This document shows positions 29,499-33,543 of a stretch of DNA of 64,000 nucleotides, piece after piece. The notes beneath the pieces are model-generated. The model made no database searches, had not been told where the DNA came from, and worked only from the letters and a program-made list of their open reading frames with translations. Made by a program: the position numbers and the translations under genes. The stretch is taken from NCBI GenBank assembly GCA_003507395.1, contig DNVW01000012.1, positions 68,285 to 132,284 on the forward strand, in the 5' to 3' direction. Position 1 is the first letter of the stretch; every line of letters begins with the position of its first letter. Source of the stretch: Clostridiales bacterium. Its GTDB lineage: Bacteria > Bacillota > Clostridia > TANB77 > CAG-508.

Positions 29499-29846
29499 CT
29501 AGCCTACTATTTTGTTTCCTAATTTTTTGCCGGCTAATAAATGAAAATGTATATGCATTACTTCTTGTCCTGAGTCTTTTCCACAATTTGCAATTACTCT
29601 AAAGCCGTCTTTTTCTATGCCTAAATCTTTTGCAATTTTATTTATTGTTGCATATATCTTTCCAATTAAATAATTATCTTCTTCTTTTACATCTAATAAA
29701 GTCTCTATATGTTTTTTGGGTATTACTAATATATGAATTGGCGCTGCTGGATTAATATCTTTAAATGCTAGTATTTCTTCATCTTCATATACTTTTTCTG
29801 ATGGAATCTCTCCTTTTATAATTTTACAAAAAATACAATTCTCCAT
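29499..29846 (-). CDS. HIT-family hydrolase
   Basis: Histidine triad HIHFHLL and an N-terminal CIFCKI. Confidence 0.85.
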   Translation of the reverse strand: MENCIFCKIIKGEIPSEKVYEDEEILAFKDINPAAPIHILVIPKKHIETLLDVKEEDNYLIGKIYATINKIAKDLGIEKDGFRVIANCGKDSGQEVMHIHFHLLAGKKLGNKIVG

Positions 29847-29922: not shown

Positions 29923-31674
29923 TTATTCTAATACAGCTTTTATACGTCTTATTCCTGCTGAACTAGATTCTTCTTTTTTTATTTTAAAATGTCCTAGTTC
30001 TCCTGTATGTTTTACATGTGGTCCGCCACATATTTCCTTGCTAAAATCTCCTATTGTATATACTTTTACTACATCACCATATTTATTTTCAAATAATCCT
30101 ATTGCACCACTTTTTTTTGCATCTTCTAAAGACATTTCTTCAGATATAACAGGTAAATCTCTTTTTATTTGTTCATTTACAATCTCTTCAACTTGTTTCA
30201 ATTGTTCTGGTGTCATTTTTTCTGGATGTGAAAAGTCAAACCTTAACCTTTCTGTTGTTATATTTGAGCCACTTTGTTTTACATGATCTCCTAACACAAT
30301 TCTTAATGCTTTGTGTAATAAATGTGTTGCTGTATGATATGCTGTTGTTATTTCGTTTTGCTCTGCTAATCCACCTTTAAATTTTTGTTCACTGCCTAAT
30401 CTTGACTTTTCTTGATGTTGTTTAAATAAAGTATCAAATTCAGTTGTATCTATTTCAAAACCTTGTTCTTTTGCTAAGTCTGCTGTTATTTCTGGTGGAA
30501 ACCCATATGTCTCATATAGTTTAAAAATAGTTTGTCCATCTATTATCTTTTTATTTTCTTGTTTTAATTTAGCTATAACTTTTTCAAACTCTTTTTCCCC
30601 ATGCCCTAGTGTTTTTATAAATTTGTCTTTTTCTTCTATTATTACTGTTTTTATTATTTCTTTTTTTTCTTTTAGCTCAGGGTACATTTCATTTAAATTA
30701 TCTATTGTTAAGTCAATTAAATTTCCAAGTTGTGCTAAGTCTATTTGCAATTTGCTCAAATGCCTTGTCATTCTCCTAATTAGTCTTCTTAAAACATATC
30801 CTCTATCTATATTGCTTGGTCTGCCACCATCACATATAATCATAATACTTGAACGTAAATGCTCTGCAACAATTCTTCTGCTTTTTATATCATCCACTTT
30901 TTCAAGTTCTTTTAATTTATCCATTACTGGTTTAAATAATTCTGTATCAAATGGTGTTTCTACTTTCTGTAATAGCATTGCCATTCTTTCTAACCCCAAC
31001 CCTGTATCTACATTTCTTTGTTTTAATTTCGTAATTCCATTTTTTGATTTGTAATATTCCATAAAAACATTATTCCATATTTCTACATATTTACCACAAT
31101 CACAAGATGGTTGGCAATTATCACTACATGCTGGCTTTCCTGTATCTAAAAACATCTCTGTATCTGGTCCACAAGGTCCTTCTTCTCCTGCTATCCACCA
31201 ATTTTCTTTTTTTCCATAAAAATATATTCTTTCTTCTGGAATTCCAGCTTTTTTCCATGCATTAAAAGCCTCCATATCTCTTGGAGCATCTTCGTCTCCT
31301 GCAAAGCATGTTACAGATAATTTTTCTGGATTTATTCCTAACTCTTTAGTTAGAAATTCATAGCTCATTGCAATTGCTTCTTCTTTAAAATAATCTCCTA
31401 AAGACCAATTACCCAACATCTCAAAATATGTTAAATGTCTATTATCTCCTACAGAATCTATGTCTACTGTTCTTACACATTTTTGATAATCTGCTATTCT
31501 TTTTCCTGCTGGATGTTTCTCTCCTAATAGATATGGCACTAATGGTTGCATTCCAGCTGTAGTAAATAATACAGATGGGTCATTTTCTGGAATTAATGGT
31601 GCACTTGGAATAATATTATGGTTATGTTTTTTAAAAAATTCTAAAAATTTATTTCTAATTTCAATTGCTTTCAT
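29923..31674 (-). CDS. alanine--tRNA ligase, short form (583 aa: catalytic core + editing HxxxH/CxxxH, no C-Ala domain)
   Basis: The N-terminal 250 aa align closely with the AlaRS aminoacylation domain (FTTAGMQP, FEMLGNWSLGDYFK, WNNVFMEY, DTGLGLERMA). The C-terminus carries HTATHLLH and CGGPH. Confidence 0.85.
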   Translation of the reverse strand: MKAIEIRNKFLEFFKKHNHNIIPSAPLIPENDPSVLFTTAGMQPLVPYLLGEKHPAGKRIADYQKCVRTVDIDSVGDNRHLTYFEMLGNWSLGDYFKEEAIAMSYEFLTKELGINPEKLSVTCFAGDEDAPRDMEAFNAWKKAGIPEERIYFYGKKENWWIAGEEGPCGPDTEMFLDTGKPACSDNCQPSCDCGKYVEIWNNVFMEYYKSKNGITKLKQRNVDTGLGLERMAMLLQKVETPFDTELFKPVMDKLKELEKVDDIKSRRIVAEHLRSSIMIICDGGRPSNIDRGYVLRRLIRRMTRHLSKLQIDLAQLGNLIDLTIDNLNEMYPELKEKKEIIKTVIIEEKDKFIKTLGHGEKEFEKVIAKLKQENKKIIDGQTIFKLYETYGFPPEITADLAKEQGFEIDTTEFDTLFKQHQEKSRLGSEQKFKGGLAEQNEITTAYHTATHLLHKALRIVLGDHVKQSGSNITTERLRFDFSHPEKMTPEQLKQVEEIVNEQIKRDLPVISEEMSLEDAKKSGAIGLFENKYGDVVKVYTIGDFSKEICGGPHVKHTGELGHFKIKKEESSSAGIRRIKAVLE

Positions 31675-31694
31675 TTCTATTCTCCTTCTTTCTT

Positions 31695-31723
31695 AACTGC
31701 AAAAATTATATAGCATTTTTCCA
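31695..31723 (-). promoter_or_regulatory. putative sigma-A promoter for the alaS-like gene (TTGCAA-17-TATAAT)
   Basis: Consensus hexamers with 17-bp spacing on the minus strand. The leader would be very short, so this is low confidence. Confidence 0.3.
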
Positions 31724-32046
31724 TAAATTGCAAGGTTTTCTTGTTATTGCTGTATTATTTTCTACGAAAACAAACCAGCTACCTTTATAGCTGGTTTATT
31801 TTTATCACAGAGTTATTCTTTTATAACTTATATTTTCTTATAGGCATCACTCTCTCCTTCTCTTTATATTTTTTTATGTATTTATTTACGTTTATTTTTA
31901 TTTTTTTACCTTATATAGCATTCCTCCTTTTTATATAGTCTGCTATTTTTTATTTAACATTCATCTATCTCCTCCTTTCTATGCTCTTATTCTATCTTTG
32001 AAATATGTCTTTTTAGTGAAGATTTTTTGAAGTATTGGTAAATGTT

Positions 32047-33543
32047 TTATCTTGGAATATCTACATCAAAATAAAATTCTACTCCATCTTTTTTGTTATT
32101 TACTCCATATTCATTTTGATAATTATTCATTATTGCTTTTACTAATGCTAAACCAATTCCTGTTCCACCATCTTGTCTGTTTCTTGAAGAATCGACTTTA
32201 TAAAATCTTCCCCAAATTCTTGTTAAATCCTCTTCTGGTATTGTTTTTCCAGTATTAAATACCGTTATTCTCATCTTATCATTTAATTGTTTTACTGTTA
32301 TTTTTATTTTTTTGTTGTTTCCTATTTCTTCTGTATGTTTTATAGCATTTGTAAAATAATTTGTTACTACTTGTTCAATATAAAATTCATCTGCCCACAC
32401 ATATATTGGTTTTTTGCTTTCAAATTCTACTTGTATATTGTTTTTCTGTAACATTACTTCACATTTTCTAATTACTTCGTTTATTAATTCATTAATATCA
32501 AATTTTTCATTATTAAATTCTTTTTTTCCATACTCTAATTTCATAAGCTCTAGTAATTGTTTAACCAATCTATCCATTTTATTTGTTTCATCTAAAATTA
32601 CTTCTGCATAAAATCTTCTTGACTCTTCATCTGTACTTACATTTTCTATTAACCCCTCTGCATAGCCTTGTATTAGTGCTATTGGTGTTTTCAATTCATG
32701 AGATACATCTGATATAAATTGTTTTCTCATGTCATCTATTTTAGATTTTTCTTCAATATCTTTTTCTAACTCTATATTACTTTTTTGTAGTTGTTTAATT
32801 GTTGTTTCCAACTTGTCTGACATAGTGTTAATGCTTCGTCCTAATTCATTTATCTCATCTTCTGTATCTGTTACTCTATATTTTTGGCTAAAATCAAGTT
32901 TGGCCATCTTATTTGCAATATCATTTAATTGTAAAATTGGATTTGTAAACTTTTTAGATATAAAAGATGCTACCACTCCAGCTACTGCTAATGTTACGCC
33001 CCCTATCATTAGTAATAAAGTATTAGATATTTTAACACTTTCCTTTATTGGAGATATTGGCATTCTTATATATAAAACATAACCATTATCTAATATTCCT
33101 GTTAAAAACATATAATTTATATTGTTTGTTTCATCAGTGGTTATTTTTATATTTAAATTATTTTTCTTATCATTTTGTGTATTGATGTTCTCTCTTGTTA
33201 TTTCATTTATATCTTTTAAAATATATGTTGAAGATAAGAATTCTTTATCTGATGTAAATATTATTAAGTTAGTATCTGTTTTTATTAATATATCAAAATT
33301 ATTTTTATATGCAATTTTTTTTAACTCTGTCTCTAAATTTATATTAGGATTTTCACTAGCATAATAATTATTTACTTTTTGATAAACTTGTTTGATTGTT
33401 GCTGTTTTTGAATATATGTAAAAATTTTCTAAAACTATACTATTTATTAATATTAAAAAAAGTACTATAATTAATATTACAACACACATTATAAAAAACA
33501 GCTTAAATCTTACAGATTTAAATTTATCTTTTATTTTATCCAT
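32047..33543 (-). CDS. sensor histidine kinase (HAMP + HisKA + HATPase)
   Basis: H-box SHELKTPI, and N/G boxes in the C-terminus (GGTGIGLALV). Confidence 0.85.
   Translation of the reverse strand: MDKIKDKFKSVRFKLFFIMCVVILIIVLFLILINSIVLENFYIYSKTATIKQVYQKVNNYYASENPNINLETELKKIAYKNNFDILIKTDTNLIIFTSDKEFLSSTYILKDINEITRENINTQNDKKNNLNIKITTDETNNINYMFLTGILDNGYVLYIRMPISPIKESVKISNTLLLMIGGVTLAVAGVVASFISKKFTNPILQLNDIANKMAKLDFSQKYRVTDTEDEINELGRSINTMSDKLETTIKQLQKSNIELEKDIEEKSKIDDMRKQFISDVSHELKTPIALIQGYAEGLIENVSTDEESRRFYAEVILDETNKMDRLVKQLLELMKLEYGKKEFNNEKFDINELINEVIRKCEVMLQKNNIQVEFESKKPIYVWADEFYIEQVVTNYFTNAIKHTEEIGNNKKIKITVKQLNDKMRITVFNTGKTIPEEDLTRIWGRFYKVDSSRNRQDGGTGIGLALVKAIMNNYQNEYGVNNKKDGVEFYFDVDIPR

Follow-up and report, generated by a model that had tools for sequence, protein, structure and literature searches.

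The subject of this analysis is alaS, a gene for alanyl-tRNA synthetase (AlaRS) on contig DNVW01000012.1 of a Clostridiales bacterium. It was studied within a 64-kb stretch of that contig (hereafter, the window), which has a guanine-plus-cytosine (GC) content of 27.7% and holds ordinary Clostridia genes (spoIVA, yunB, sipL, mfd, pflB, fhs, secY and a class II D/K/N synthetase gene). The alaS open reading frame (ORF), which is read on the minus strand from an ATG codon, specifies a product of 583 amino acids. A two-component system adjoins it in this species, and a HIT-family gene lies downstream. Coordinates of these features, of the domains of the product and of predicted transcription signals are collected in Table 1.

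Table 1. Features of the alaS locus, in window coordinates (aa, amino acids; pLDDT, predicted local distance difference test score).
Feature	Position	Strand	Basis
alaS, small alanine--tRNA ligase, 583 aa	29923..31674, stop codon included	minus	ORF; NF002436; Pfam PF01411 and PF07973; AlphaFold2
Class II catalytic (aminoacylation) domain, about residues 1–240	30955..31674	minus	matches to AlaRS catalytic fragments 1riq, 3hxu and 9jc7; boundary approximate
Helical tRNA-recognition domain, about residues 241–426	30397..30954	minus	1riq alignment through residue 426; model helical at 248–429
Short linker (~17 residues) replacing the β-barrel subdomain, about residues 427–443	30346..30396	minus	alignment; pLDDT <50 at 427–437
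AlaX-S-like editing core, about residues 444–583, with zinc motifs HxxxH (447–451) and CxxxH (549–553)	29926..30345	minus	PDB sequence matches; Foldseek
Predicted sigma-A-type promoter, TTGCAA-17-TATAAT	31705..31733	minus	promoter scan; 10 of 12 consensus matches, best site of the region
Terminator-like hairpin, 10-pair stem	31772..31797	minus, by inference	called by the scan on the plus strand, ahead of ATTTTTAT
HIT-family (HINT-like) gene, 115 aa	29499..29846, ATG at 29846	minus	Pfam HIT, E 2e-28; 115-aa call in public assemblies

An earlier reading of the window, made from its letters alone (hereafter, the original prediction), had described the product as an AlaRS with catalytic and tRNA-recognition regions, and domain searches agree with it. 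Pfam family tRNA-synt_2c (PF01411, class II AlaRS) matched residues 5–450 with an E value of 1.7e-141, with only positions 1–452 of the 552 model positions covered, while tRNA_SAD (PF07973, the Thr/Ala-RS second additional domain) matched residues 536–578. No Pfam match to DHHA1 was found in the 583-residue protein. In a comparison with PDB sequences, residues 2–426 matched the catalytic fragments of Aquifex aeolicus and Escherichia coli AlaRS, and residues 444–578 matched residues 597–732 of Archaeoglobus fulgidus AlaRS as well as the free-standing AlaX-S 1v4p. An AlphaFold2 model built from a 42-sequence alignment had a mean pLDDT of 89.4, and only the linker stretch listed in Table 1 fell below 50. 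When the model was searched with Foldseek, the N-terminal part matched AlaRS catalytic fragments with target-normalized template modeling (TM) scores of 0.81–0.89, and the C-terminal part matched the AlaX-S entries 1v7o, 1wnu and 1v4p with scores of 0.82–0.87. Both editing motifs that had been read in the sequence, HTATHLLH and CGGPH, are present in the protein, the former as YHTATHLLH at residues 446–454 and the latter at residues 549–553.

The protein is 293 amino acids shorter than E. coli AlaRS (876 amino acids), in line with the predicted shortfall of about 300. We aligned it with E. coli AlaS, two relatives of 878 amino acids and four short relatives, and counted the residues that fell on each domain of the E. 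coli enzyme. Residues 1–440 of E. coli AlaRS (catalytic domain and tRNA recognition) were covered by 428 residues of the window protein, residues 461–552 (β-barrel subdomain) by 4, residues 553–705 (editing core) by 145 and residues 706–875 (linker and C-Ala) by none. The deficit of 293 amino acids is thus due to two deletions, an internal one that removes the whole β-barrel subdomain and a C-terminal one that removes the linker and C-Ala. The editing core is complete despite both deletions. The absence of C-Ala had been predicted correctly. The editing-domain β-barrel had been thought to be partly lost and the protein simply to end early; the loss and the shortness are both real, but the whole subdomain is gone, by internal deletion, and an early end accounts for one of the two deletions only. 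The two features of a canonical full-length bacterial AlaRS, a DHHA1-like C-Ala and a β-barrel subdomain, are therefore both absent.

A length below expectation would also result from an error of sequencing or assembly, or from decay into a pseudogene, if a frameshift or an early stop codon had cut a full-length alaS; nothing else about the gene points that way. The exact 583-residue product recurs in 253 blocks of independent public assemblies, and in all six places shown the order of genes is the same: response regulator, histidine kinase, alaS, HIT gene and cation diffusion facilitator (CDF) transporter. More than 100 clusters at no less than 90% identity, mostly of 583 amino acids and thus essentially equal in length, were retrieved by the first protein search. 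With each GTDB species represented by one genome, a scan gave at least 556 matching stretches, of which the best 80 species loci were taken as the ortholog set. These 80 orthologs are 70–84% identical to the window protein, cover its residues 1–582 or 1–583 and stop at one common point; when re-translated, they are 583–590 amino acids long, except for one of 563. About 90 of the 293 absent residues belong to the in-frame internal deletion, which is common to the whole family. Finally, the ATG of the HIT gene is located 76 nucleotides past the alaS stop codon, which leaves no space for a C-Ala coding sequence. The frameshift that had been named as a possible refutation is excluded by the hundreds of assemblies, the 80 species orthologs and the closeness of the HIT gene, and the chance that an artefact or a decayed gene underlies the short product is close to nil.

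The short form corresponds to a known family. NCBIfam NF002436 (PRK01584), an equivalog model of 595 positions named alanine--tRNA ligase, matched residues 1–583 on model positions 1–593 with a score of 870.9 bits (the cut-off is 529). The identical protein has been deposited as "alanine--tRNA ligase [Clostridium sp. CAG:798]" and carries the same annotation in NCBI and JGI. HMMER, run exhaustively over 1.84 billion cluster representatives, produced 4,719 matches at E ≤ 1e-30. Among the best 150 representatives (50%-identity clusters), 68 have the catalytic domain and the editing core without barrel or C-Ala, and 74 are canonical. A neighbor-joining tree of 149 sequences was computed from distances over 413 N-terminal columns, with no bootstrapping; one clade of 75 leaves holds the query and every other short form (70 in total), and the 10 sequences nearest to the query are all short. 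Relatives named by the profile search come from Patescibacteria, Nealsonbacteria, Parcubacteria and Clostridia metagenome-assembled genomes (MAGs), and all are annotated as alanine--tRNA ligase. AlaRSs of about 594–605 amino acids may also exist in Borrelia and Treponema, but no weight is placed on them here.

An enzyme type named small-AlaRS, with catalytic, tRNA-recognition and editing domains and with neither a cradle-loop barrel nor C-Ala, is described in passages of a preprint (bioRxiv 10.1101/2023.05.29.542759). The window protein has this same architecture, matches NF002436 from end to end and belongs to the common clade, and nothing in those passages sets it apart architecturally. The hosts given in the passages are bacteria of the candidate phyla radiation (CPR), Thermoplasmatota, DPANN and Asgard; gut Clostridia, to which the present host belongs, are not named in them. 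We therefore conclude that the gene is a natural, complete and already catalogued small-AlaRS type, which occurs in low-GC gut Clostridia and in Patescibacteria. Of the two explanations offered in the original prediction, the first, a naturally compact AlaRS, is supported by the full-length match to NF002436, by the clade of short forms and by the conservation among 81 orthologs described below. The novelty that had been implied is not supported, since family and architecture have both been described already.

A few canonical-length AlaRSs (P0153 and P0154, 878 amino acids, at loci L082 and L083) nest in or beside the small-AlaRS clade. P0153 and P0154 share N-terminal signatures of this clade, among them the LGNWSLG motif and a motif 2 loop shortened by a 4-residue deletion. 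Their placement and signatures hint that the short form arose from this sublineage through domain loss. A cluster of cysteines (C183, C187, C191 and C193) was considered as a hallmark of small-AlaRS and rejected: it is invariant in the 81 orthologs, yet four or more cysteines in the same segment are found in 53 of 79 full-length representatives compared with 17 of 73 short ones, and the cluster, being commoner in full-length enzymes, is not specific to small-AlaRS.

Upstream of alaS, a promoter scan identified a site of the sigma-A type (Table 1), as had been predicted. Transcription from it would start near position 31698, leaving a leader of about 24 nucleotides before the ATG, and AAGGAG is present at positions 31687–31682, seven bases upstream of the start codon. 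Of 26 ortholog upstream regions read by eye, most also had similar promoter-like hexamers, some 25–70 nucleotides ahead of the start codon. Neither a T-box nor any riboswitch would fit into a leader of about 24 nucleotides, and alaS is likely to be transcribed from a plain sigma-A promoter with such a leader. The predicted absence of a T-box was confirmed by scans with covariance models. At gathering score, Rfam gave no match of any family in the whole window; the T-box model (RF00230) had no match at E ≤ 10 in positions 31500–32200, and no T-box was detected by Rfam in 10 orthologous loci of 137 kb in total. The conserved T-box 14-mer AGGGTGGNACCGCG, with up to three mismatches allowed, has no match near alaS.

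We found no support for other means of leader-based control. In the upstream scan, matches to other known leader RNAs were below threshold and at chance level (STnc370, a CRISPR direct repeat, and ylbH, whose 20 bits compare with a gathering score of 50). As for attenuation at alanine codons, the tiny upstream ORF MPIRKYKL contains no alanine codon. This ORF of 8 codons and another of 4 codons, MNVK, each follow one of three strong Shine–Dalgarno-like motifs (AGGAGG/AGGAGA) that are located on the minus strand at positions 31800–32046, upstream of the alaS promoter; the hairpin listed in Table 1 comes next. No other strong structure appears in the fold of the 372-nucleotide intergenic region. 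The hairpin is palindromic, and its 3′ neighbor sequence on the minus strand is GTTTTCG. It appears to close the upstream minus-strand histidine-kinase unit.

Fourteen of the functional residues tested are invariant in the 81 orthologs. These are R68, W160, N201, V203, D223 and G225 of the alanine/ATP site (R69, W170, N212, V214, D235 and G237 in E. coli AlaRS, respectively), N288 of acceptor-stem recognition (E. coli N303) and the editing residues H447, T450, H451, Q467, S470, C549 and H553. Residue R577 is arginine in 80 of the 81 orthologs and falls into a gap in the remaining one. Position 388 (E. coli D400), encoded by the minus-strand codon 30511–30513, is Glu in the window protein; Glu is found in 46 and Asp in 35 of the 81 orthologs. 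In P0205, a more distant short AlaRS, the equivalent residue is Thr, as seen in an alignment of eight sequences. Over the catalytic domain as a whole, 115 of 240 positions are invariant. The functional roles given to the E. coli residues (alanine/ATP site, acceptor stem, editing) follow the AlaRS literature, and D400 contributes to G3:U70 recognition.

The resemblance of the editing core to free-standing AlaX-S raises the question of whether the protein could be a trans-editing or otherwise non-aminoacylating relative of AlaRS that has lost synthetase activity. The data on conservation argue against this, since the catalytic domain is complete and every tested residue of the alanine and ATP sites is invariant. 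Family models agree: the score of the protein is far above the thresholds of the alaS equivalogs NF002436 and TIGR00344, whereas the AlaXM model covered only residues 428–582 and gave 72.7 bits, far below its cut-off of 300. Loss of synthetase activity is thus very improbable.

In all likelihood, the protein is the alanine--tRNA ligase of a low-GC gut bacterium and a member of the small-AlaRS family NF002436/PRK01584. Since the tested aminoacylation and editing residues are conserved across orthologs, the reading best supported by sequence is that of a working, editing-competent AlaRS. Such an enzyme would activate alanine with adenosine triphosphate (ATP) and pass it to tRNA-Ala, with the G3:U70 pair of the acceptor stem read by Asn288 and Glu/Asp388; Ser- or Gly-tRNA-Ala would be cleared in the editing core. 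Having no C-Ala, it is probably a monomer that, by analogy, would bind the acceptor arm alone and leave the tRNA elbow untouched. Several points weigh against this reading. Deletion of C-Ala sharply reduces aminoacylation by the E. coli, A. fulgidus, yeast and Caenorhabditis elegans cytoplasmic enzymes (PMC8887476), so full activity of the window protein calls for compensating features. No biochemical study of a bacterial small-AlaRS was found in our literature search, and nothing on bacterial AlaRSs devoid of C-Ala was found in it besides the small-AlaRS preprint. Lastly, neither the window nor any of the 46 related loci scanned contained a tRNA-Ala gene, and the presence of G3:U70 in the substrate is therefore an assumption.

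The original prediction had also put forward a second AlaRS-like paralog with a specialized role. In this case, the protein would act beside a canonical alaS product of about 875 amino acids, in a stress-specific or antibiotic-resistant capacity or in a non-translational supply of alanyl-tRNA; AlaRS-like paralogs occur in natural-product pathways. Consistent with this proposal are the two-component system next door and the absence of a T-box, an element stated in the original prediction to normally control Firmicute alaS, and our view of the genome is that of the 64-kb window. On the other hand, NF002436 is curated by NCBI as an equivalog of alanine--tRNA ligase, and Patescibacteria proteins of equal architecture bear that annotation. 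All 80 genomes of related species that were retrieved carry the gene, and its conservation (given above for the catalytic domain) resembles that of housekeeping genes, whereas the two-component system is not conserved as its neighbor across species. The largest contigs with near-identical proteins measure 1.3–1.46 Mb; if these are near whole genomes, redundant synthetases would have scant room in them. The nearest full-length AlaRSs found sit in DNA of 45–49% GC compared with 27.7% for the window, which indicates that they come from other organisms. P0153 and P0154, which are 48% identical in the eight-sequence alignment and lie in DNA of this kind among unrelated neighbors, were rejected as co-resident paralogs on these grounds. 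Taken together, a specialized duplicate appears improbable, and a natural small-AlaRS that serves as the alanine--tRNA ligase of its host is preferred.

The HIT gene is found immediately downstream of the small-AlaRS gene in 56 of the 80 species loci, while upstream neighbors vary. No minus-strand terminator was predicted between alaS and the HIT gene, and the two are probably co-transcribed. The recurrence of the HIT gene at this place, next to varying upstream neighbors, points to a conserved alaS-hit operon. HINT proteins hydrolyze aminoacyl-adenylates, and a functional link in which, for example, the HIT protein hydrolyzes stray aminoacyl-adenylates is conceivable. A broader scenario, which we put forward tentatively and regard as rather unlikely, is that a forebear of the present gut Clostridia lineage swapped its canonical alaS for a small-AlaRS of a type also found in Patescibacteria, with an uncharacterized mode of tRNA binding offsetting the lost C-Ala and barrel and with the HIT protein as a possible partner.

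Compared with E. coli AlaS (TIGR00344), the window protein is homologous in the catalytic, tRNA-recognition and editing-core parts, with 41% identity over the aligned parts, and differs by having neither the β-barrel subdomain (about 461–552) nor the linker and C-Ala (about 706–875). E. coli alaS is annotated also as a DNA-binding transcriptional repressor; this function cannot be assumed for the window protein because the C-terminal region is absent.

Natural enzymes with a missing or reduced C-Ala are known elsewhere. The mini-AlaRS of Tupanvirus lacks C-Ala and charges tRNA-Ala via the acceptor stem alone (PMC10036535); as C-Ala is missing from the window protein too, the viral enzyme is a plausible model for how it may work. 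The two differ in descent, which is eukaryotic for the viral enzyme and bacterial for the window protein, and in content: Tupanvirus mini-AlaRS has no editing domain and no tRNA-recognizing Asn and Asp, whereas the window protein has an editing core, the Asn and a Glu/Asp. A viral mini-AlaRS is marked by the absence of the editing domain, which here is represented by a conserved core. The mitochondrial AlaRS of C. elegans retains about 54 residues of C-Ala and acts on a tRNA without a T-arm (PMC8887476). It resembles the window protein as a working AlaRS that has naturally lost an intact C-Ala, and differs from it in that a residual C-Ala is kept. AlaX-S (Pyrococcus horikoshii PH0574; 1v4p, 1wnu) has the same fold and zinc motifs as the C-terminal 140 residues of the window protein and no synthetase domain; in the window protein, a complete aminoacylation unit and the editing core are joined in a single chain. 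AlaX trans-editing proteins are stand-alone editing domains, and the full catalytic domain found here distinguishes the window protein from them.

The value of these results lies mainly in correcting the annotation: the protein is naturally short, not the product of an error, and the T-box is really absent. A modest open question is also raised, as loss of C-Ala cripples the E. coli, archaeal, yeast and nematode cytoplasmic enzymes (PMC8887476), yet many clusters lack both C-Ala and the β-barrel. An abundant small-AlaRS of the human gut such as this one would be a handy protein for probing acceptor-stem-only recognition and cis-editing without C-Ala.

Elsewhere in the window, a second synthetase gene is located on the plus strand at positions 17147–18544. 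It encodes a class II protein of the D/K/N type, 465 amino acids long and probably AsnRS, and has no T-box. An ORF of 2642 amino acids (3085–11013, minus strand) and an adjacent one of 522 amino acids (11064–12632, minus strand) matched no Pfam family at E ≤ 1e-5; the GC content of the former is 30–33%, compared with about 25% around it. In one of the orthologous loci (L045), an OLE (ornate large extremophilic) RNA (Rfam RF01071) was found on the plus strand at positions 4724–5349 of that locus, with a score of 346.6 bits and all 616 model positions (1–616) covered. Its host is a low-GC mouse-gut Clostridia MAG, MGBC121045 (contig CAQDYY010000006.1), which is not an extremophile, and the RNA is located about 650 nucleotides upstream of the small-AlaRS ortholog.

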